Below, in pieces: positions 9,136 to 27,843 of a DNA stretch of 32,000 nt. A program made the translations under genes and the position numbers. Where the stretch lies: the NCBI RefSeq assembly GCF_001545095.1, contig NZ_CP013213.1, forward strand, positions 2,070,001 through 2,102,000. Direction: 5' to 3'. Every line of letters starts with the position of its first letter. Position 1 is the stretch's first letter. The stretch comes from Erysipelothrix larvae (lineage in GTDB: Bacteria; Bacillota_I; Bacilli_A; Erysipelotrichales; Erysipelotrichaceae). Below the pieces are notes generated by a model that searched no databases, was not told the DNA's origin, and saw nothing but the letters and a program-made list of their open reading frames with translations.

Positions 9136-9164
9136 TTTACATTACTACCATATGGTAGTATACT
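9136..9164 (+). promoter_or_regulatory. Near-consensus sigma-A promoter with an embedded 18-bp palindromic operator
   Basis: TTTACA (9136-9141), a 17-nt spacer, then TATACT (9159-9164). The spacer is almost entirely the perfect palindrome TACTACCATATGGTAGTA (9143-9160). Confidence 0.6.
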
Positions 9165-9202
9165 ATATGTGTACAGAGGGAAACCCCCTTAAGGAGTCAC
9201 AC

Positions 9203-9451
9203 ATGAAAACAAATCAACAATTTCCACTTCACGAACTTGAATTAGCACCTTGGGTATGGGCTAAGAATCGCGCATTATGCGCAGTTGCAAATTGGAATGA
9301 CAACCTGTTCGAAATCGTGAACGAATCAGAAAAAGCAATTCAAATCAAAATCATCCAACCTTCAAAAGGTGAAGCACACGAAAAATTGCACGGTGAATGG
9401 TTGCAATGGTTACCTAAATCAGCAGTATTGAACATTGAGCGTTACAGTTAA
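9203..9451 (+). CDS. Hypothetical protein, 82 aa (first gene of the plus-strand moron)
   Basis: The ATG at 9203 follows AAGGAG (9191-9196) with a 6-nt spacing. The track's longer ORF begins inside the promoter. No TM segment and no recognised motif. Confidence 0.6.
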   Translation: MKTNQQFPLHELELAPWVWAKNRALCAVANWNDNLFEIVNESEKAIQIKIIQPSKGEAHEKLHGEWLQWLPKSAVLNIERYS

Positions 9452-9466
9452 TAGGAGGAAACAACA

Positions 9467-9910
9467 ATGACAAGCAAAGACTTAAGAGATGTAAAGAAAG
9501 AGTATGGATATGTATTACGTTGGATCAACGGTGGTGGTGATGAAGCCGGGAACACTTGGCCATATCGCTACTTCCTGGAATGCACATTTACAGGGAATAA
9601 AATTGAGTTAGATCATGATAAGTTCAAAGAGTTAGTGACGTTCCCTATTTCGGAGTTCAAAGGACCTTACGCTTATGAGCGATATGTTGAGCTATTTAAT
9701 CACTTTGGAATTGAGCCAATGACCACCAAATCAAGACAAGAGCGGTATATAAGAGCCGTCAGCGACTTAACGTTATCTTCGATAATGACACACTCGGACA
9801 GAGTCAATTTCTCAAAAGGTGTGCTTGGAAAAGCGCGTATTGAACAATATGCAAAAGAATTCCGCAGCAAGGTTAAAAAAGCAGAACAGCTACTTCAATC
9901 AAATGATTAG
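9467..9910 (+). CDS. Hypothetical protein, 147 aa (second gene of the plus-strand moron)
   Basis: Strong SD (TAGGAGGAAACAACAATG) 15 nt after the upstream stop. Soluble-looking, no recognised motif. Confidence 0.7.
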   Translation: MTSKDLRDVKKEYGYVLRWINGGGDEAGNTWPYRYFLECTFTGNKIELDHDKFKELVTFPISEFKGPYAYERYVELFNHFGIEPMTTKSRQERYIRAVSDLTLSSIMTHSDRVNFSKGVLGKARIEQYAKEFRSKVKKAEQLLQSND

Positions 9911-9916
9911 TATATA

Positions 9917-9955
9917 GAAAAAGAGCCACCCCAATTAAGAGGTGGCTTTGTTTTC
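9917..9955. terminator. Bidirectional rho-independent terminator
   Basis: Stem AGCCACC/GGTGGCT (9924-9930 and 9941-9947) flanked by an A-run on the left and TTGTTTT on the right. It serves the plus-strand moron and the convergent minus-strand lysis operon. Confidence 0.7.
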
Positions 9956-10264
9956 ATATTTTCTATCTAAAGGATCAGTGCGCATTTCTAATTGATCATA
10001 CATTTTTTCCACTTTGTGAATCAAGCCATTCCCACCCATATCATAATAGTTGCATATCAATGAATGCATGGTTTCATATTCGTAATCGGTCGTATAACCT
10101 CTATCACGAGCCTTTTCCCATATTCCGATGATGTCTTTACGCAAGATACTTAATATTGCATGTCCTTGCGCTTTGTCTTTCTTATGCAACTTTTGAACGG
10201 TACGACCTAGGTAAATAGTTATGGCCCATATGACTTTATCAATCCAAGGTGTTATATGTTCCAT
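9935..10264 (-). CDS. Hypothetical protein, 109 aa, last gene of the lysis operon
   Basis: Starts 6 nt after the endolysin stop. Function not recognised. Confidence 0.6.
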   Translation of the reverse strand: MEHITPWIDKVIWAITIYLGRTVQKLHKKDKAQGHAILSILRKDIIGIWEKARDRGYTTDYEYETMHSLICNYYDMGGNGLIHKVEKMYDQLEMRTDPLDRKYENKATS

Positions 10265-10270
10265 GTTGGA

Positions 10271-11116
10271 TTACTTCACCGTGCCGTATTTAGGATTCAC
10301 ACGCACTTTACCATAATCGCGTGTCACAATAACACGATCACCATTCCCAGTGATTGTTACAAGGTCATAAGTTAATCCACCAAATTTCTTAGGATTAATC
10401 GTTCCCACTTTTTTCCCATCTGCATAACTGTACACAGGCACAGCGCTTCCAAGTGATGCAGGAAGTGTTAATGTTTTAGGTGCGGAAGTCGGTGTTGATG
10501 TAACTCCTTTATTTACGATTGCTTGAATCGCATTTGCATCATAACCAGCAGCAGTCAATCGTTGTACACGGTCAGCTCCATTACCCCATTTACCATCCCA
10601 TACTTCTTTAGCAACTTCATCATTTGATTTTTTAGCAGATGCAGTTGAAGTCAAAACATAACCTACTGGATCAACCCATTTAGAATCGTTACGGTCTACT
10701 GAAGTAGTACGACCTTTATAAAGACCTGCATGAATGTGTGGGCCTGTTGACATACCAGTATTGCCTGAGTATGCGATTAGGTCACCTTTAGAAACCTTTT
10801 GGCCAACCTTAACGAGTTGTTGTGATAAATGTCCTGCAAAGAACGTTAATCCCAATGATGCGTTGTATACAAACACATCAAGACCATATGACGGTTGATT
10901 GCGTGTTGCTGTAATTTCACCATCAAATGGAGCATAGATTTTAGTACCGACAGACAGAGCCTTATCAATACCAGGATGCATCCCATCTGATGTACCAGCG
11001 GAAGCAATCGCTTTACGATATCCATAACCGCACGACAACACGTGTGGCCCATTTGTTTTTAAGCATAAGTCAAGCATCTCAATAGATGCTGAAAAGTTTT
11101 CTTTAGCGTATTCCAT
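10271..11116 (-). CDS. Endolysin: M23 (LytM-type) peptidase with C-terminal cell-wall-binding region
   Basis: M23 metal motifs HPGID and GPHIH (SGNTGMSTGPHIHAGLY). A CW_7-like repeat (WGNGADRVQRLTAAGYDANAIQAIVN) and an SH3b-like tail. It lies immediately downstream of the holin. Confidence 0.85.
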   Translation of the reverse strand: MEYAKENFSASIEMLDLCLKTNGPHVLSCGYGYRKAIASAGTSDGMHPGIDKALSVGTKIYAPFDGEITATRNQPSYGLDVFVYNASLGLTFFAGHLSQQLVKVGQKVSKGDLIAYSGNTGMSTGPHIHAGLYKGRTTSVDRNDSKWVDPVGYVLTSTASAKKSNDEVAKEVWDGKWGNGADRVQRLTAAGYDANAIQAIVNKGVTSTPTSAPKTLTLPASLGSAVPVYSYADGKKVGTINPKKFGGLTYDLVTITGNGDRVIVTRDYGKVRVNPKYGTVK

Positions 11117-11431
11117 TTATTTTCCTCCCAAGCCATTTACAAAGGCTTCAATCAATATATTTAATTCAATATCACTAATAGTTATCCCTTTTTCATTTGC
11201 CCAAATCAGAACCTTCTCTTTAGCAAGAGCAAGTTTTTCTTTTCCGTCAAGGTTCACTCCGATTTGCTCAACGTATAGAACCGTTGATTGAACGAATTTA
11301 TAGATTTTCTCTTGTTGGTCTATATCCAACTTTGAATCAACGTATGTTTTAACTTTTGTTGCCACATACCCCAATACGATTGTTGCTATACCCATTAATA
11401 ATGGTGTTAATTGTGTTAATAATTCTTGCAT
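11117..11431 (-). CDS. Holin (LL-H-family-like: one N-terminal TM helix plus a soluble tail)
   Basis: N-terminal TM LTPLLMGIATIVLGYVA. The tail pattern ...KEKLALAKEKVLIWANEKGITISDIELNILIEAFVNGL matches my memory of LL-H-type holins. Strong SD, and it abuts the endolysin start. Confidence 0.7.
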   Translation of the reverse strand: MQELLTQLTPLLMGIATIVLGYVATKVKTYVDSKLDIDQQEKIYKFVQSTVLYVEQIGVNLDGKEKLALAKEKVLIWANEKGITISDIELNILIEAFVNGLGGK

Positions 11432-11443
11432 ATATGCCTCCTT

Positions 11444-11869
11444 TTATGTCAATTGGAAAACACACGTCATGTCTAGGGTTTGTTCGTGTGTTTGCGTATA
11501 AACTTGTATCATACCATTTGTAAAGATCGTTGCATCTCTGTGCAATATTAAATTTGCACTAGTAACAGTAATCACTTTAACTGTTCGGTTTGCACTTGGC
11601 CTGTATCCTTCTGCCAATGTTCCGATTGTTTTTGTTGAATCACTGCTGTTATTTAATGTTCCTGCAATATTTATCAAAACGAAATCGCCCATTCTTATTG
11701 CGACTCTTGTTGCATAACTAGAAATTCCGCCTCCTGCAGTTGGAAATGAAAATAAAGGCGCACGAAAGTCTAAATCGTTACTATTATCAATAATTGCATC
11801 AAACAACTCATCACTGTGTTCATAGGTGTTGTTTGTGTCTTTAAATGTTGTTTTATTTATTTGTGCCAT
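11444..11869 (-). CDS. Small tail-fibre-tip / receptor-binding-head paralog, 141 aa
   Basis: The N-terminus MAQINKTTFKDTNNTYEHSDE resembles the N-termini of the two genes upstream. The C-terminus carries AEGYRP...TNG, shared with the 134-aa and 270-aa proteins. No SD in the 27-nt spacer. Confidence 0.55.
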   Translation of the reverse strand: MAQINKTTFKDTNNTYEHSDELFDAIIDNSNDLDFRAPLFSFPTAGGGISSYATRVAIRMGDFVLINIAGTLNNSSDSTKTIGTLAEGYRPSANRTVKVITVTSANLILHRDATIFTNGMIQVYTQTHEQTLDMTCVFQLT

Positions 11870-11896
11870 AAAATGACACTAACTGTCTTTGTGGGG

Positions 11897-12301
11897 TTAG
11901 ACTCTGTACTGAATGTTGATTTGAACGTTTTCACCTGCGGTTCTTGTTGCAATCGCAATATTTCCATCTGTTGACAACCTAATAGGTTGAACTTCGTCAC
12001 CTGATGCACGATAAGAACGAGCAATGACAGTTATGTTTTCTTTAGGTCTATATGCGTTTGGAACATTACACATTACGGTGTTCACGGTTGTTGTGCCTGC
12101 ATTTAACATACCTTGCAAGCTAACCATTCCTGTGTGGTCCTTTGTCGCGGTCACTGTTCCTGCCCAGCCATTGAATGTTGAACAAACTCCGGTATCTATC
12201 AAAGCTAGACTCTTTAGTTCTCTAGCAAGTTCTCTCATTGCTTCGTTGCTGTATTCAGCATCATCATTGGAATCAAATAGTTTTGTTTCATCTAAAGCCA
12301 T
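11897..12301 (-). CDS. Small tail-fibre-tip / receptor-binding-head paralog, 134 aa
   Basis: N-terminus MALDETKLFDSNDDAEYSNEAMREL is paralogous to MAVDTSKIYDSNGISELSDEAIKEL of the next gene. C-terminus carries VPNAYRP...STDG. No SD in the 29-nt spacer. Confidence 0.55.
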   Translation of the reverse strand: MALDETKLFDSNDDAEYSNEAMRELARELKSLALIDTGVCSTFNGWAGTVTATKDHTGMVSLQGMLNAGTTTVNTVMCNVPNAYRPKENITVIARSYRASGDEVQPIRLSTDGNIAIATRTAGENVQINIQYRV

Positions 12302-12330
12302 AATAATAGGCTAAGTCGTTTAATGGGGGG

Positions 12331-12774
12331 TTATTTCCAACGTCCTTTTACAAGTACATTAAAAGCAACAATTGCACCTGAAGTAGAAACTGGCCTCATC
12401 ACACGTAATGATGGGGTGGCGTTTGCCGATACAGAAGTAACACCTGCGATAACTTCGCAAGGATGCCCTTTTGCAATTGTCACAAATACTTTTGGAATAT
12501 CCGCTAGTATAATTGGATATGAAATAGCGCCTACTTCTGCATAAAACACAGAACCCCATGCAGTCGTTACATCCAATGTGTAATTCCCTGTAGTTGCTTC
12601 CATTTCACAGTAGCCACTATTCCATCTTCTTATTCTCCAATTTCCAACAATTGTATCTGATACAAGGAAATCTAGTTGAACTTTGTCAATAGACTCTATC
12701 AATTCTTTTATGGCCTCATCACTTAATTCTGATATGCCATTAGAATCATAAATTTTTGATGTATCGACTGCCAT
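12331..12774 (-). CDS. Small tail-fibre-tip paralog with a different C-terminal domain, 147 aa
   Basis: The ATG at 12774 gives MAVDTSKIYDSNG... The track start at 12780 is TTG. It shares the N-terminal module with the 134-aa protein but has an unrelated C-terminus. Only a weak SD (AAGGGG, 10 nt upstream). Confidence 0.6.
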   Translation of the reverse strand: MAVDTSKIYDSNGISELSDEAIKELIESIDKVQLDFLVSDTIVGNWRIRRWNSGYCEMEATTGNYTLDVTTAWGSVFYAEVGAISYPIILADIPKVFVTIAKGHPCEVIAGVTSVSANATPSLRVMRPVSTSGAIVAFNVLVKGRWK

Positions 12775-12802
12775 TAGCAAACAACCCCTTGCAAACGACC
12801 TT

Positions 12803-23191: not shown

Positions 23192-24877
23192 CTATCTAAT
23201 AAATCCTATATATTCACTTCTGTTACGCTCCATTGAAACGTACGCATTTAATGCAGATGCAAACCCATCAATCCGTTGTTTCGATGTTTTGATTTTCATT
23301 GGCATAATATTTCCGTTTTTATCTGGAATAACCTTAACGTTCATGCTACACCATTCAAAAATAGGGTTTTGATTATATACCAGTTTGCTCGATTTCATGT
23401 CGGCCGTTAGTTGATACATCGGTGCAGACAGCGTGTAAACACCTTGAATAACTTGATCCATAACGATATCACCAAATTGATCTTTCATTTCTTGCACAAG
23501 ATAATTTGCTGAGTAACGGTCATAACCGATTCGATAATACATAAACCGATGTTTGCGTTGCATTTCAACAAACCATTCGAGTACATCCTTATGATTGACT
23601 CTGTTTCCCTGACACGTCCTTAAATAACCATCATTAATCCATTTTCGATAGGGCACAATTCCATCTGATTCTCTATCTTCCAATGAATCCTCCGGAATCC
23701 AATACATTTGATCCATGTACATTTTTTCATCACTATGTGACATAAATAAAATTGTGGCACATGTCATATCTATCGTCTCAGATAAGTCAAAACCACCAAA
23801 TACATATTTAGGTTTAACCGCGAGCGGATTGTTTGGTTCATCCGCATAATATACGAATCTTTCATCGTTTTGAATGTCTTCCAAACTGAACCAACTTTCA
23901 GCACTCGTATCCGGAACATTACAATCTTTTGCTAAGAAGTTTCGAACAAGCTCAGGCTTTCGCAAGGCTTTTTTATGCTTTTCTCGAATCGTTTTCTCTT
24001 TTTTGATTGTACCTAACCCAGGATTTGCTTTTCGAATATTTTCAAAGTCTTTCCATTCGTCGCGTTTATCAAGCTCGTAAATAATATTCAATGTGTTTTC
24101 ATCAATATCTTCGCCTTTTTCAAAAAAGTTTATTTGATTCTCAGCATCGGAATATAAACGGTCAAACACGACGCTTTTTTCCGTTCCTGCCGTTGTAGTT
24201 CCAAAAATCATCCAGTTCAAACGTGCTGACGTAGCATCAAGCATTACATCATACATGTTCATGTCTTTCCATGCTTCGATTTCGTCCAAAGTTGCTCCAT
24301 GCACATTCAAACCATCGAGAGATTTTGAATCACGTCCCAAAGGTACGTATTTGCCTTCATTGAAAGCTGTAATAATTTCGGAGTGTTTAACTTTCGCGAA
24401 TTTTTTCAAAGCAGAAGACTTGTTAATCATCTTCGTAGCTTCTTCCCAAATGATCTTGGCTTGTGCGTGTTTGGTTGCAACCGCATATACTTCAGGCCCA
24501 GGTTCCCCATCTGCGATGAGAAGGTATAAGCTGATTGCCGCTGCCAAGGTAGACTTTCCATTTTTACGTGCGACCATAAACATAACAAAACGATATTTAC
24601 GAATGTTTGTGCCTCTATGTACGATACCGAACATCGCAGCAACTAATGCTTTTTGCCAAAGTTCAAGAATAAACGGTTTTCCACCAACTTCACCTTTTGA
24701 GTGCTTACAGAACGTTTGAATAAAATCAAGTGCGTGATTTGCTAGATCTTCGTTATATTCAAATTTTTTGGAAGTCAGTACATTTGTGATAATAAACCAA
24801 TAGGTTATTCGCACCTTGCGCGGAACAATTTCTGTTCCGTCCAAAATCTTTTGATAATATTCATAAATTGGATTCAT
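23192..24877 (-). CDS. terL: Terminase large subunit
   Basis: 561 aa. N-terminal ATPase region (GKPFILELWQKALVAAMFG, VARKNGKS Walker-A-like) and a C-terminal nuclease region. The ATG overlaps the TerS stop (ATGA). Confidence 0.9.
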   Translation of the reverse strand: MNPIYEYYQKILDGTEIVPRKVRITYWFIITNVLTSKKFEYNEDLANHALDFIQTFCKHSKGEVGGKPFILELWQKALVAAMFGIVHRGTNIRKYRFVMFMVARKNGKSTLAAAISLYLLIADGEPGPEVYAVATKHAQAKIIWEEATKMINKSSALKKFAKVKHSEIITAFNEGKYVPLGRDSKSLDGLNVHGATLDEIEAWKDMNMYDVMLDATSARLNWMIFGTTTAGTEKSVVFDRLYSDAENQINFFEKGEDIDENTLNIIYELDKRDEWKDFENIRKANPGLGTIKKEKTIREKHKKALRKPELVRNFLAKDCNVPDTSAESWFSLEDIQNDERFVYYADEPNNPLAVKPKYVFGGFDLSETIDMTCATILFMSHSDEKMYMDQMYWIPEDSLEDRESDGIVPYRKWINDGYLRTCQGNRVNHKDVLEWFVEMQRKHRFMYYRIGYDRYSANYLVQEMKDQFGDIVMDQVIQGVYTLSAPMYQLTADMKSSKLVYNQNPIFEWCSMNVKVIPDKNGNIMPMKIKTSKQRIDGFASALNAYVSMERNRSEYIGFIR

Positions 24878-25260
24878 CGCGGTTTTCCTTTTTTCAAGAA
24901 TGCACGCAATTCGTCGTTGTCTGATATATCTTCATTTTCCGGAAGCAAGTCCGTCAATTGTTTAATGATTTCTTTGTATTGTTTTAAGAAAGCATTGTAT
25001 GTAGATATGTCTGGATTTTGTTTTGTGCCAAATTGATTTTTTCCATTTTGGTATTCAATGGTAGTTCCTTCATCATTAATTGCCTCCTGCAACTCATAAA
25101 GATGGACATAAAGAAAAGCTCCGTTTTCAATCAATCCTTCAGCAATTTTCTTTTTCTCAGGATTCATCGCTTTGTATGAGCTTTTGATTTTTCGTTTTGC
25201 TCGTGTAACTAGTTCATCCAATGTGAACGGCTCTCCGGTTTTTTTATTTATTTCACGCAT
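24874..25260 (-). CDS. terS: Terminase small subunit (P27-family-like)
   Basis: Start moved to MREINKK (ATG 25260) behind AAAGGAGG. The track's 24 extra N-terminal codons run through the GC-rich palindromic region. Position is between HNH and TerL. Confidence 0.75.
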   Translation of the reverse strand: MREINKKTGEPFTLDELVTRAKRKIKSSYKAMNPEKKKIAEGLIENGAFLYVHLYELQEAINDEGTTIEYQNGKNQFGTKQNPDISTYNAFLKQYKEIIKQLTDLLPENEDISDNDELRAFLKKGKPR

Positions 25261-25383
25261 TTTCGTTAATTCCTCCTTTCCGGACACCACACCCCCCTCG
25301 CGCGCGAGGTTGTGTGAATTTATACTCCCCACCGACGGTCCCCTTGGGAACGGAGTTTTTTTTAAATAGGGGGGTATCTTGCT
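25261..25383. other. Candidate cos (cohesive-end) region between HNH and TerS
   Basis: The only markedly GC-rich non-coding patch in the phage. It has a perfect 14-bp palindrome CCTCGCGCGCGAGG (25296-25309) flanked by CACAC/GTGTG arms, then CCCCACCGACGGTCCCCTTGGGAACGG, a T8 run and a G6 run (25356-25374). Confidence 0.4.
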
Positions 25384-25749
25384 TTAAATACTGCTCTTTT
25401 TCTTTGTTAATCGCCCATTTTCATCGAAGAACACATCGTTTGGGATTGCTTCTTTGCTCGAATTATGATGTTTATTATGACAATCTTGACATAATAATTC
25501 TAGATTGTTCCATCCTAATGATACGAATGGGTTTGATATATTACGCGGATTAAGTTCTTCAATGTGATGCACGATTCCGTAATATACTTCCTTACCTTCT
25601 TTACGAAGCTTAAGATACTGTGGATCATTACGTCTCCAACAAGCACGACCACAACGTTCGCATATTCCAAATTGTGACTCATAATATGCATCTCTGCATA
25701 CTCTCCACTGTTTTGATTTATAAAAAGACTTCGCAAAGTCTTTTGCCAT
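25384..25749 (-). CDS. HNH endonuclease (packaging-associated)
   Basis: Cys-rich N-terminus (CERCGR). HNH core GIVHHIEEL...NLELLCQDCHNKHH. SD GGAGGTG. Confidence 0.9.
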   Translation of the reverse strand: MAKDFAKSFYKSKQWRVCRDAYYESQFGICERCGRACWRRNDPQYLKLRKEGKEVYYGIVHHIEELNPRNISNPFVSLGWNNLELLCQDCHNKHHNSSKEAIPNDVFFDENGRLTKKKSSI

Positions 25750-25770
25750 TGAATCACCTCCAATGATTGG

Positions 25771-25797
25771 GTAAAAGAAAAGAGCCGTTCGGCTCTA
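25771..25797 (-). terminator. Rho-independent terminator closing the two-gene accessory cassette
   Basis: Stem AGAGCC/GGCTCT (25781-25786 and 25791-25796) with a 4-nt loop, followed on the minus strand by TTTTCTTTT. The stem includes the stop codon at 25795-25797. Confidence 0.65.
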
Positions 25798-26355
25798 TTT
25801 TATTGCTTCTATTGCTTTGAATAATTTATCAACGTTTGGGAATAGATAAATAAATAGCCATCCTAAAAACCCAAGAACAGTGATAAACGCTGTTGTTAAA
25901 ATCCAATTTCTTAACCTTATTTCAGTATTTTCTAATTTAGTTTCTAAACTTTCTTTTGTAATCAATTTATCATCAATTTTTTCTAACAGGATAACAATAC
26001 TATCAAGTCTTTTTTCAATATTCTCAAGTCTTTTTTCGTTAGAATCTTTGTATACATTAAAAGTCTCCTGACTTACATTGTTGCTCATATCATACCCTCC
26101 TACACTAGTGTCACTATTGTTTAATAGCGGATAATTTTCAGTAGTTTTCGGATCATTCAATTTTAATGATCCGGGATTCACATTTCCATGAATTAGCGAG
26201 GCAAATCCAATACCAATTGTAAGAAATAGAATTGAAGCATGAGACTTACCCTTTTGTAATGTTTTATTATCTGATAAATCTTGTATGATTTCTCTGTAGT
26301 GACTACCATTATTTTTATCAATGATTAGGGTTATTGAATTAGTCTCAATCTTCAT
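25795..26355 (-). CDS. Two-TM membrane protein with a central coiled coil, 186 aa
   Basis: Start set at MKIETNS (ATG 26355), overlapping the upstream stop by 11 nt. TM1 is ASILFLTIGIGFASLIHG. The coiled coil is NEKRLENIEKRLDSIVILLEKIDDKL...ETKLENTEIRLRNW. TM2 is ILTTAFITVLGFLGWLFIYLF. Confidence 0.65.
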   Translation of the reverse strand: MKIETNSITLIIDKNNGSHYREIIQDLSDNKTLQKGKSHASILFLTIGIGFASLIHGNVNPGSLKLNDPKTTENYPLLNNSDTSVGGYDMSNNVSQETFNVYKDSNEKRLENIEKRLDSIVILLEKIDDKLITKESLETKLENTEIRLRNWILTTAFITVLGFLGWLFIYLFPNVDKLFKAIEAIK

Positions 26356-26755
26356 ATTTATAGATTTTATCAGCTTCAATAGTAAATCGAAGTTTATATA
26401 CATCACCATCAATTGTTGCAATAATAGTGTGGATTCCCACTTTCATAAATGCAGTGTTTTTAACATCAAGATTTAAATTAAAGTTATCAAAATCTTGTCC
26501 AATAGGCGGGATTGTTTGAGGGGCTTGTCCGAATACACTATTACCTTCTGGATCTTCTATATTAAACCCAAATGATAACCCTTCTTTAAAAGTATACCCT
26601 GTCGTAACAAACATTACGTGAAATGATAAAGCCGAAGGTACAAACGGTAACCTAAAAGCTAAAACAGGTTGAACGAGTCTATTTGTTACTGCTCCATTTG
26701 GAGCTATTACTTGCTCATTTCCCTCTGCAATAATAATTTGACACATCTTTTCCAT
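26345..26755 (-). CDS. Hypothetical beta-rich soluble protein, 136 aa
   Basis: Start set at MEKMCQIII (ATG 26755), 10 nt after a GAGGAG SD. The track's ATG at 26782 abuts the predicted -10 box. No recognised motif. Confidence 0.6.
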   Translation of the reverse strand: MEKMCQIIIAEGNEQVIAPNGAVTNRLVQPVLAFRLPFVPSALSFHVMFVTTGYTFKEGLSFGFNIEDPEGNSVFGQAPQTIPPIGQDFDNFNLNLDVKNTAFMKVGIHTIIATIDGDVYKLRFTIEADKIYKYED

Positions 26756-26782
26756 TAATCTTTTTCTCCTCATGACACCCAT

Positions 26783-26812
26783 AATATATCACAAAAAGGA
26801 ATAAAAATGTCA
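26783..26812 (-). promoter_or_regulatory. Putative promoter with extended -10 (TGaTATATT)
   Basis: Minus strand TGACAT (26812-26807), an 18-nt spacer, then TG-A-TATATT (26791-26783). Confidence 0.5.
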
Positions 26813-26813
26813 C

Positions 26814-26854
26814 TTTTTGAGCGAGTTTTCCACATTTTTGATGAGTTTTCCACA
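26814..26854 (-). repeat. Tandem 21/20-bp direct repeat TTTTTGA(GC/T)GAGTTTTCCACA x2, just upstream of the -35
   Basis: The core GAGTTTTCCACA is identical at 26823-26834 and 26843-26854 (20-nt period). Confidence 0.9.
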
Positions 26855-27079
26855 CTTATTTAGGGTGCAAAATTGCATTTCAGCCTTTATTTAGTGTGTT
26901 TTGGTCTTTTTACACCTACACCCCCACCCCCTAACACAATAAAACCCACCGTTGGGCTACAGTGAGTTTTATTTAGCATAAGGAGAAAACCTATGAATTT
27001 TTAGAAAAGGGCGGTCCCTCTTGGCCAAAAGACCACATTACCATAATATCACGGAAAATAGCGGACTGAGTGTCATCTT

Positions 27080-27493
27080 TCAAAAATTTTCAAGCATTTT
27101 ATCTAGATCTCTCTTCAATTTACTAACGCTGCATAATGCCAGTGTTGCTACCTTTTCTATGTTCACATTGTTAACATACACCTCTGTCACAATCTTACGC
27201 TCTTCATAGGATAAACCGTCAAGGAACTGTGCAATATGATCCGTTCGGTGTTTGTACATTGCTAAACTATACTGATGCCGTTGCAGCTTCGTTAGCAAGT
27301 CCTGCTTACGTTCCTCAGGGCTTATAAAGCTTTTGCCTGGAGTTTTTGGAGCAGAAGGTGACCTAACACCTTCAAGCTCCGTTTCGATTTCCAATATCTT
27401 CCCTTCGAAGCCATGCACAACATTGAGCAGATACATGTAGTTTCTCAACTCATTCTTAGCATAGTTGATTTGTTGACGTTGTTCATCGGTCAT
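27080..27493 (-). CDS. RinA/ArpU-type phage late transcriptional activator (sigma region-4-like HTH)
   Basis: 137 aa. C-terminal LSYEERKIVTEVYVNNVNIEKVATLALCSVSKLKRDLDKMLENF resembles a sigma-70 region-4 HTH. Position just upstream of the packaging genes. Start set at MTDEQRQQ (ATG 27493) behind AGAGGTGA. Confidence 0.6.
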   Translation of the reverse strand: MTDEQRQQINYAKNELRNYMYLLNVVHGFEGKILEIETELEGVRSPSAPKTPGKSFISPEERKQDLLTKLQRHQYSLAMYKHRTDHIAQFLDGLSYEERKIVTEVYVNNVNIEKVATLALCSVSKLKRDLDKMLENF

Positions 27494-27593
27494 CGGAATC
27501 ACCTCTGGAGCCACCAATGATTATTGATAATACCAACATGCCAGTAAGCCCACCTAGAATGTACCCAAACAAGAATGGCCATAAATTACTCAT
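27483..27593 (-). CDS. Unannotated 36-codon hydrophobic peptide: MSNLWPFLFGYILGGLTGMLVLSIIIGGSRGDSDDR
   Basis: Hand translation. A GGAGG SD (27607-27603) lies 9 nt before ATG 27593. The ORF overlaps the stop of the upstream gene and the start of the late activator by 11 nt. Below the track size cutoff. Confidence 0.45.
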   Translation of the reverse strand: MSNLWPFLFGYILGGLTGMLVLSIIIGGSRGDSDDR

Positions 27594-27843
27594 GATCCTT
27601 TACCTCCAGTTCTATTTTCTTGTACTTAGTTTCTCTTTCCCCTCTTCTTTCACGAGCAGTCAAGGGTGATACAGGAAGGGAACGCATATATTCCCTTAGT
27701 CCTATGCCATACTTATTTTGATGAAGCTTATCCAACAATTCCATCCGTTCTGTTTGAGTATTAACTTGTAGTGCTTTCAAGCTTGGTAGATTATGTAACC
27801 AAGAGTTCTGACCATTACGTCTAACTTCAACAATTATCATCAT
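27586..27843 (-). CDS. Hypothetical protein, 85 aa
   Basis: ORF in the early/middle phage gene string. No motif recognised. Confidence 0.5.
   Translation of the reverse strand: MMIIVEVRRNGQNSWLHNLPSLKALQVNTQTERMELLDKLHQNKYGIGLREYMRSLPVSPLTARERRGERETKYKKIELEVKDHE

Follow-up and report, generated by a model that had tools for sequence, protein, structure and literature searches.

RexA and RexB of phage lambda form a prophage-expressed, two-protein abortive infection system, in which the sensor is cytoplasmic and the effector lies in the membrane. To our knowledge, PdpSau, a protein of Staphylococcus aureus prophages, has no partner gene. PdpSau is membrane-anchored and mediates resistance to kayviruses, for which the title of the report uses the term abortive infection (PMC10127798). 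In the S. aureus phage ASZ22RN, genes 33–35 form a "moron" between the integrase gene and immAR, to which no function has been assigned (PMC12323379). Gp33 of this phage has coiled coils and a C-terminal transmembrane (TM) segment at residues 135–155, its gene shares an 8-nt overlap with an unannotated gene upstream, and the authors described a structural similarity of the moron to pore-forming toxins (PMC12323379). In the PBSX prophage, xepA lies directly before xhlA, and XhlA is reported to be essential for lysis there (PMC6834076). Here, we describe two adjacent genes, A and B, in a 32-kb stretch of Erysipelothrix larvae DNA (hereafter the window), which encode a predicted soluble protein and a membrane protein, respectively.

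Gene A, 26755–26345, minus strand: 136 residues; predicted all-beta sandwich; a divergent member of DUF6941 / PHROG 5881
Gene B, 26355–25795, minus strand: 186 residues; coiled-coil membrane protein

The A–B cassette is very probably a horizontally mobile accessory module, or moron. We also propose, far more tentatively, that the pair acts in conflicts between mobile elements.

Conservation of the A–B pair across mobile elements

The partner gene of the A homologue was recorded at each of approximately 17 loci (the compared loci are labeled L001–L030). At all of them, a B-like gene directly follows the A-type gene, and the partner is a protein of 123–212 residues with a coiled coil and a C-terminal TM segment. 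The sites at which the pair is found are listed below.

Between a late regulator and the packaging genes: the window; L014/L015; L017; L025
After the holin/lysin genes, on the same strand: Leuconostoc phiMH1 and its relative in IMG/VR; Lactococcus 38502; Staphylococcus hominis StB12; L018/L019; L023; L028
Convergent to the lysin–holin genes, outside the late operon: L024; L026
Within lysogeny modules, codirectional with the repressor and integrase genes: Aeribacillus AP45; S. aureus phiETA; phage 71
On a contig with a relaxase, a single-stranded DNA-binding protein and an IS256-type transposase, with no phage genes in view: L001–L006

The gene order is regulator, metallophosphatase, A, B, HNH endonuclease and terS in L014/L015, which comes from an Erysipelotrichaceae assembly, and regulator, A, B, terS and terL in L017. 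The first-pass annotation, which was made from the window alone, had described the cassette as an inserted module between the late activator and the HNH gene; it is no one-off insertion there, because L014, L017, and L025 carry the cassette at the same place. In the lysogeny modules, the order is regulator, a 205-residue gene, thermonuclease, A, B and recombinase for AP45 (L030), and repressor ORF6, ORF5, ORF4, ORF3 (A-type), ORF2 (B-type) and integrase for phiETA. DSP07, grouped with these, is a sequence match only. The phiETA ORF3 sequence was present on 566 contigs (more than 500 for S. aureus), whereas 123 contigs carry the Lactococcus A protein.

When the window is compared with L017, the identity is 55% for the regulator, 47% for A, and 28% for B. 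Such faster divergence of B than of A is a pattern typical of conflict genes.

Three neighbors of the pair were observed at individual loci. An Abi_2-family gene lies immediately after A–B in L018 (1688–2617), in convergent orientation, and is the sole recognizable defense-gene neighbor among the approximately 17 loci. A 406-residue metallophosphatase-like gene separates the regulator from the cassette in L014 (3133–4353), and a 469-residue "thermonuclease" gene lies just upstream of A–B in L030 (2522–3931). Two candidate links to described genes were discarded: the remark on a TcdC homologue in phiMH1 concerns a different gene, between CI and the integrase, and the Listeria TerI system is unrelated.

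Accessory status of the cassette

A search for near-identical DNA of the region among 50,697 phage records gave no match. The closest phages by terL, CBP1, B13, Athena, and PhiSepi-HH1 (47–51% identity), are in the searched collection and showed no tblastn match to A; their regulator-to-terS regions contain other, unrelated small genes. In addition, the GC content is 33.3% for A (19% at third codon positions, GC3) and 28.9% for B (GC3 22%), compared to 35–41% (GC3 27–43%) for the neighboring genes. The properties by which morons and accessory genes are recognized, that is, signals of their own, atypical composition, variable presence, and occurrence in unrelated elements, are thus all found for the cassette.

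The first-pass annotation had described the cassette as an inserted transcription module rather than a part of the conserved packaging string. Its own signals, its low GC content, and its absence from the nearest phages bear this out, with the qualification that the cassette possibly lies inside the late transcript. The first-pass annotation had named universal conservation in the phage lineage, together with a demonstrated morphogenetic role, as evidence that would speak against its reading; the cassette is variable in the lineage, and a morphogenetic role is not on record for it. We therefore take the cassette to serve neither morphogenesis nor core lysis: its sites in other elements speak against the latter and are compatible with exclusion or abortive infection.

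Protein A

The start of gene A was placed at MEKMCQ, where an AGGAG Shine-Dalgarno sequence (26770–26766) lies 10 nt upstream of the ATG at 26755. On account of this Shine-Dalgarno sequence, the starts of the homologues, and the inferred transcription start, which lies downstream of the earlier ATG, gene A is taken to encode 136 residues and not the 145 residues of the mechanical open reading frame (ORF). The AlphaFold model, built from a 13-sequence alignment, is a nine-strand beta-sandwich that forms a single domain, with a mean predicted local distance difference test (pLDDT) score of 90.3 and a predicted template modeling score of 0.82, in agreement with the earlier description of the protein as "beta-rich". 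Neither a signal peptide nor a hydrophobic segment is present in the protein, which is predicted to be cytoplasmic and soluble.

A matched PHROG 5881, a family whose function is uncharacterized, over residues 1–126 (E = 6.3e-14), and matched Pfam DUF6941 (PF22091) at 19.5 bits (E = 1.3e-3), which is under the gathering cut-off of 27 bits. All 13 A-type sequences scanned matched PHROG 5881, and the relatives of A in AP45 (64.3 bits) and StB12 (37.7 bits) lie above the DUF6941 threshold. A profile of A and three relatives retrieved 15 proteins, 12 of which carry PF22091 (E <= 1e-26). This transitive evidence indicates that A is a divergent DUF6941 / PHROG 5881 member. For phiETA ORF3, hhalign gave a probability of 75% (E = 2.5e-5), and ORF3 is a probable distant DUF6941 member.

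In a profile search of 1.84 billion representatives, A retrieved 570 clusters at E <= 1e-3. Nearly all of the best 150 representatives are stand-alone proteins of 125–150 residues, and the search yielded no informative domain fusions, the few long matches covering just the N-rich region, as repeats. A word-indexed homologue search found one match for A, with 50% identity (P0002, the L001 homologue), and tblastn of P0002 against plasmids gave no match. Pattern scans with an alignment of window-type A sequences found one locus in genomes, none in the viral collection, and one in metagenomes; the window-type A subfamily is rare in these collections. The relatives of A in public records are named only "DUF6941 family protein" or "hypothetical protein".

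A has just two good structural matches, both of them uncharacterized phage proteins, the better of which is from Anoxybacillus phage A403 (TM-score, a template modeling score, of 0.79). Foldseek also matched A to the PDB folds of RhoGDI, UNC119, the Wzt carbohydrate-binding domain, and macroglobulin domains. These were rejected as homologues, as the matches are generic immunoglobulin (Ig)-like ones with a TM-score of ~0.5 and ~10% identity, and at most they hint weakly that A binds a ligand or a hydrophobic tail. XepA and YomS were likewise rejected as relatives of A, being outside the top 50 structural matches and showing no sequence match. The PDB sequence-profile search and NCBIfam gave nothing informative for the cassette.

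Protein B

The segments of protein B are as follows.

Residues 39–57 (HASILFLTIGIGFASLIHG), 26185–26241, minus strand: N-proximal hydrophobic segment, Kyte-Doolittle 1.9; possible first TM segment in this copy
Residues 58–95, minus strand: N/S/T-rich loop, which holds the GG-Y-D-M-S motif
Residues ~96–150, 25906–26070, minus strand: amphipathic, heptad-like coiled coil, from the AlphaFold helices, the heptad count and coiled-coil Pfam/PHROG matches
Residues 152–172 (ILTTAFITVLGFLGWLFIYLF), 25840–25902, minus strand: C-terminal TM anchor, with R-N-W just before it

The N/S-rich loop, the heptad coiled coil, and the C-terminal TM segment are all present, as first annotated. The accompanying description of B as a "two-TM" protein stands for the C-terminal segment, which is conserved, whereas the first TM segment is plausible in the window copy only and is not a family feature: the AP45 and phiETA partners lack an equivalent of residues 39–57, and that of L014 has a Kyte-Doolittle value of only 1.08.

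The core of the B family, as defined by the partners of the A homologues, consists of the motif GG-x-(N/D)-M-(S/N), an amphipathic coiled coil of ~55 residues, (R/K)-W, and a hydrophobic C-terminus, and is preceded by a variable N-terminal extension of ~45 to 120 residues. The C-terminal segment has a Kyte-Doolittle value of 2.1–2.6 in 12 of the 13 proteins, and in the AP45 and phiETA partners it is the sole hydrophobic segment. The B family is best described as tail-anchored, with the C-terminal segment as its single conserved membrane segment. Because the AP45 and phiETA partners are hydrophobic only at the C-terminus, the N-terminal part and the coiled coil of B are most likely located in the cytoplasm with A, as judged from the sequences.

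The single-sequence AlphaFold model of B is of low confidence (pLDDT 58), with helices at residues 96–130 and 134–171 reaching pLDDT 70–87, and a Foldseek search with this model gave nothing meaningful. No homologue of B was found by the word-indexed search or by tblastn in the phage collection. The uncharacterized PHROG 7090 was matched by 6 of the 13 B-type proteins (best 3e-9). Homology of phiETA ORF2 by hhalign against the B-family alignment was not accepted, because the GG-x-x-M motif alone was aligned; the B-type homology of the staphylococcal partners consequently rests on architecture, motif, and synteny.

The phiMH1 partner in GenBank (L007 5408–5911) has 167 residues and no C-terminal TM segment, and the IMG/VR relative of phiMH1 (L010 8414–8995) has an identical A and a 193-residue partner with the TM segment. 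The phiMH1 record probably contains a frameshift or truncation in B.

A likeness of B to the XhlA family had been suggested in the first-pass annotation. It is upheld, weakly, by the architecture, a coiled coil followed by a TM segment, and by the matches of some relatives, but not by B of the window itself, which gave no Pfam XhlA match at E <= 10 (subject to the HMMER filters) and matched the XhlA-type PHROG 1193 at E = 0.15. PHROG 1193 was matched by 4 of 13 B-type proteins (best 1.9e-5, model positions 11–64 of 76), and the XhlA-type "hemolysin" PHROG 937 by 2 of 13 (7.4e-7). Pfam XhlA was matched by 1 of 8 at 1.1e-3, below significance. Values of this kind can be inflated by the composition of coiled coils. 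In L027 and L028, small proteins with a coiled coil and a TM segment, encoded before the holin gene, have an XhlA-like look, and were set aside with no Pfam XhlA match.

Expression signals and flanking genes

Every gene in this part of the window is on the minus strand. The genes and signals around A and B are listed below.

27517–27080, minus strand: sigma-like regulator, 145 residues; PHROG 36 "transcriptional regulator", E = 1.2e-6
Between the regulator gene and gene A, minus strand: non-coding stretch, 324 nt
26854–26843 and 26834–26823, minus strand: two exact direct repeats TGTGGAAAACTC, 12-mers, 20 bp apart
26813–26785, minus strand: putative sigma-A promoter, with –35 GTGACA (26813–26808), a 17-nt spacer, and a TG-extended –10 TGTGATATA (26793–26785, TG-T-GATATA)
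25796–25773, minus strand: intrinsic terminator found by a terminator scan, with stem AGAGCC / GGCUCU, loop GAAC, and U tract UUUUCUUUU
25749–25384, minus strand: HNH endonuclease; Pfam 25.5 bits, over the cut-off
From ~25260, minus strand: terS, identified in the window
24877–23192, minus strand: terL, identified in the window

The ORFs of A and B overlap by 11 nt (ATGAAGATTGA, 26355–26345), so that B begins within the final codons and the stop codon of A; the coordinates agree with the overlap noted earlier. Overlaps of 8–23 nt are also found in L001, L014, L017, AP45, and phiETA. The 11-nt overlap suggests translational coupling of the two genes.

The repeats TGTGGAAAACTC are centered at approximately –70 and –50 relative to the inferred transcription start, upstream of the –35 element, and have a single near-match (one mismatch) elsewhere in the window, inside a gene. 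They are a putative regulator binding site. All three other upstream regions that were read, those of L001, L014, and L017, also have direct repeats, the sequences of which differ. Repeats at the same relative place with sequences that vary by locus suggest element-specific regulators. A comparable TG-extended –10-like element lies 26–31 nt before the start codon of A in the same three loci. A promoter upstream of A is plausible. The promoter with an extended –10 and upstream direct repeats, as previously described, is sustained as regards its elements, which are present, but a generic sigma-70 scan does not call the promoter-like site, because the –10 hexamer matches at 3/6 positions, or because the spacer is 19 nt if TATATT is taken as the –10.

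The terminator after B has a folding energy of –9.2 kcal/mol (z = –3.7 relative to shuffles), and the AG of the TAG stop codon of B forms its first two stem bases; the scan thus recovered the terminator that had been noted with the stop codon in its stem. A hairpin with a U tract also follows B in L014, L017, and L001 (–9.6 to –10.4 kcal/mol). The gap from the terminator to the next gene is ~25 nt in the window (HNH), 46 nt in L014 (HNH), and 17 nt in L017 (terS), and the HNH Shine-Dalgarno sequence GGAGG of the window lies ~10 nt past the T tract. Because the packaging genes have no promoter of their own here, they would have to be transcribed from upstream, through the terminator. We speculate that late transcription proceeds by terminator read-through, and that the cassette is transcribed both alone and in the late message. 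Late read-through is not in conflict with the accessory status indicated by the other contexts. This layout raises the question of how transcription reaches the late packaging genes of the phage group, for which terminator read-through and antitermination are candidates.

The upstream regulator had been labeled rinA. No RinA or ArpU model was listed for it at E <= 1 in NCBIfam, and a weak match to a sigma-70/extracytoplasmic function region was found (E = 1.8e-3). The label was positional, without a RinA or ArpU sequence match, and we do not retain it; a role of the regulator as an activator would likewise follow from its position.

Several further elements were observed between the regulator gene and the cassette. 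Right after the stop codon of the regulator (window 27083–26940, minus strand; L017 760–900), the scan found a promoter-like element, TTGAAA-17-TATTTT, and a motif of 22/25 nt (TTTTCCGTGATATTATGGTAATGTG) directly 3' of the regulator gene is common to the window and L017. In the window, this motif is followed by two terminator-like hairpins, at 27036–27011 (–12.7 kcal/mol) and 26958–26943 (–11.4 kcal/mol). The post-regulator element may give rise to a short leader or small RNA; alternatively, it may be a late promoter under read-through control. Closer to the cassette, a G-rich run (GGGGGTGGGGGTGTAGGTG) lies at 26915–26935 (minus strand), the 9-mer TGTAGGTGT of which is also found, inverted, in the equivalent region of L017. 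An Rfam search of 25200–27700 found no RNA family.

Other features of the window

For terS, the mechanical ORF starts at a GTG at 25332 (24874–25332), and a strong Shine-Dalgarno sequence (GGAAAGGAGGAA) precedes an internal ATG at ~25260 (MREINKK...); the real terS product is probably ~128 residues long. The HNH–terS intergenic region (25261–25383) is GC-rich, and a palindrome that includes a G-run (CCTCGCGCGCGAGGGGGGTGTGGTG) is found in it. HNH-dependent cos phages have their cos site in this interval, between HNH and terS, so that the palindrome is a candidate cos site. With a cos site there, the cassette would be close to the right end of the virion DNA.

The lysis genes of the window are located 14 kb away from the cassette.

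10271–11116: endolysin, Peptidase_M23 and CW_7
11117–11431: holin, Holin_LLH

Just upstream of the holin gene (11444–12780, minus strand), there are three tandem small genes encoding 149, 134, and 141 residues, with N-termini that are alike, e.g. ...DSN(D/G)...SxEA(M/I)(R/K)EL..., and with no Pfam match. They look like paralogous tail-fibre-associated or accessory proteins. Past the endolysin gene (9152–10264), a 109-residue ORF with a hydrophobic N-terminus (9935–10264, minus strand) and two plus-strand ORFs (9152–9451 and 9467–9910) were observed. This region is a candidate second accessory region, at the classical post-lysin site.

Discussion

The function that we favor, with rather less than even confidence, is that of a conflict module of the prophage or mobile element, which would mediate abortive infection or the exclusion of other phages. 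In this proposal, the pair would be expressed in the lysogen, and B would be a membrane-acting effector with a C-terminal anchor, coupled in translation to A. A would be the cytoplasmic partner, a controller or sensor that interacts with B and either holds it in check or switches its action on the membrane on. We base this proposal on the lysogeny-module and post-lysin sites, the divergence of B, the coupled expression, and the predicted presence of A and most of B together in the cytoplasm. A more specific version is doubtful: a DUF6941 sandwich with a tail-anchored partner would constitute a previously unrecognized two-component anti-phage system of Firmicutes prophages and conjugative elements, including phiETA ORF3–ORF2, in which A senses a phage cue and then releases, or stops restraining, a membrane-disrupting B.

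Several observations weigh against a conflict function. Neither A nor B of the window matched any of the 5027 models of PADLOC-DB v2.0.0 at E <= 1, and 26 members of the A and B families gave only scattered, coiled-coil-rich matches to PADLOC models (DndD, SspC, PbeC, LmuB, and JetC). We found no paper that mentions DUF6941 or PF22091, and a recognizable defense gene adjoins the pair at only 1 of the ~17 loci. The repeats upstream of the –35 element are in an activator-type position, so that the cassette may be transcribed late and not in the lysogen, and the layout downstream of B suggests that the cassette may be inside the late transcript too. Other cargo roles, such as membrane stress tolerance and plasmid or prophage maintenance, fit the same contexts.

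Maintenance of the toxin–antitoxin kind, in which B is a membrane-damaging toxin and A, made first, neutralizes it, so that the pair stabilizes its carrier element and any defense is secondary, is unlikely in our judgment. The two small overlapping genes with the putative neutralizer first, the single promoter-to-terminator unit, the promoter-like region of its own with nearby repeats, and the distribution over diverse mobile elements, including the relaxase-bearing contig, are all as expected for such a system, and the lipid-tail-binding proteins RhoGDI and UNC119 among the best PDB folds of A (weak, at the TM-score given above) would fit a shielding of the hydrophobic segment of B. These fold matches are, however, to generic Ig-like sandwiches with low identity; A has no recognizable DNA-binding fold (no match of the helix-turn-helix, ribbon-helix-helix, or AbrB type), the repeats are upstream of the –35 element and not over the core promoter, and there is no sequence match to a known toxin or antitoxin family. 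According to a further explanation, A and B are late proteins encoded by the first genes of the late operon, with a role in virion production or the infection cycle, the repeat-bearing promoter is the late promoter, switched by the sigma-like regulator, and the terminator is partial or read through. The activator-type position of the repeats at –50 and –70, the position of the pair directly after the late regulator in four phages, the gap between the terminator and HNH (~25 nt), which, like those before L017 terS and L014 HNH, is too short to hold a promoter, and the conserved promoter-like motif followed by hairpins after the regulator gene (window and L017), which hints at read-through control, point in this direction. 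We nevertheless consider it quite unlikely, given that the pair also has sites outside any late operon, namely lysogeny modules, positions convergent to the lysis genes, and a relaxase-bearing element, that it is absent from the nearest phages sharing the packaging and head genes, and that four loci have kept, downstream of B, a U-tract terminator of approximately –9 to –10 kcal/mol. Late co-transcription and an accessory function are, moreover, not mutually exclusive.

Lysis is the remaining role to be weighed. B could work with the holin as XhlA of PBSX does, and A could be its partner or regulator in lysis timing or as an anti-holin, functions that had been suggested when the pair was first annotated. 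This we hold to be decidedly improbable. The pair directly follows holin/lysin genes at about six loci, but the holin and endolysin of the window are 14 kb off, and the sites in lysogeny modules (AP45 and phiETA), convergent to the lysis genes (L024 and L026), and next to a relaxase (L001) would need no lysis helper. The XhlA-type coiled coil followed by a C-terminal TM segment in B, and the matches of its relatives to PHROG 1193 (4/13), PHROG 937 (2/13), and Pfam XhlA (1/8), speak for such a role, as does the position of the PBSX beta-sandwich gene xepA directly upstream of xhlA, the product of which is reported to be essential for lysis (PMC6834076). Against this, B of the window has no significant XhlA match, and XepA and YomS are outside the top 50 structural matches of A.

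If the pair is a defense or exclusion system, it would be a new two-gene module for Gram-positive bacteria, in species relevant to dairy fermentation (Lactococcus and Leuconostoc) and to medicine (the prophages of S. aureus and S. hominis). A function would then be assigned to DUF6941 / PHROG 5881, which comprises ~570 clusters at 50% identity, and an explanation would be at hand for two conserved genes, labeled "unknown", that phiETA-type phages carry in their lysogeny module.

Comparison with known systems

A prophage moron, or possible defense pair, is a well-known category, to which the cassette contributes proteins without characterized relatives. We found no paper on the constant pairing of A and B, and the nearest remark is that on the ASZ22RN moron (PMC12323379). 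Genes 33–35 of ASZ22RN occupy the same slot as phiETA ORF3–ORF2, and Gp34 has 173 residues. The members of DUF6941 / PHROG 5881 have the same length and stand-alone architecture as A, and the family function is uncharacterized, so that membership gives no mechanism.

In XhlA of PBSX (PF10779), as in B, a coiled coil leads into a membrane segment at the C-terminus, and in the PBSX cluster xepA-xhlA-xhlB-xlyA the beta-sandwich gene xepA is immediately upstream of xhlA, just as A precedes B. This parallel is suggestive. In contrast to XhlA, B is approximately twice as long, carries a GG-x-(N/D)-M motif, and varies in its N-terminal region, and A is not a detectable relative of XepA or YomS. Unlike the XhlA lysis cassette, the cassette of the window is not beside a holin or endolysin gene, and elsewhere the pair belongs to lysogeny modules or to a non-phage element.

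PdpSau is a membrane-anchored prophage protein, as B is predicted to be, and offers a precedent for the kind of function rather than a relative. RexA–RexB resembles the A–B pair in that adjacent prophage genes in accessory or lysogeny positions encode one soluble and one membrane protein. The two systems have no sequence or fold relation, and RexB is polytopic and channel-like whereas B is a coiled-coil protein with a single anchor; RexA–RexB serves here as a working analogy only, for the proposed control of a membrane effector by its cytoplasmic partner.

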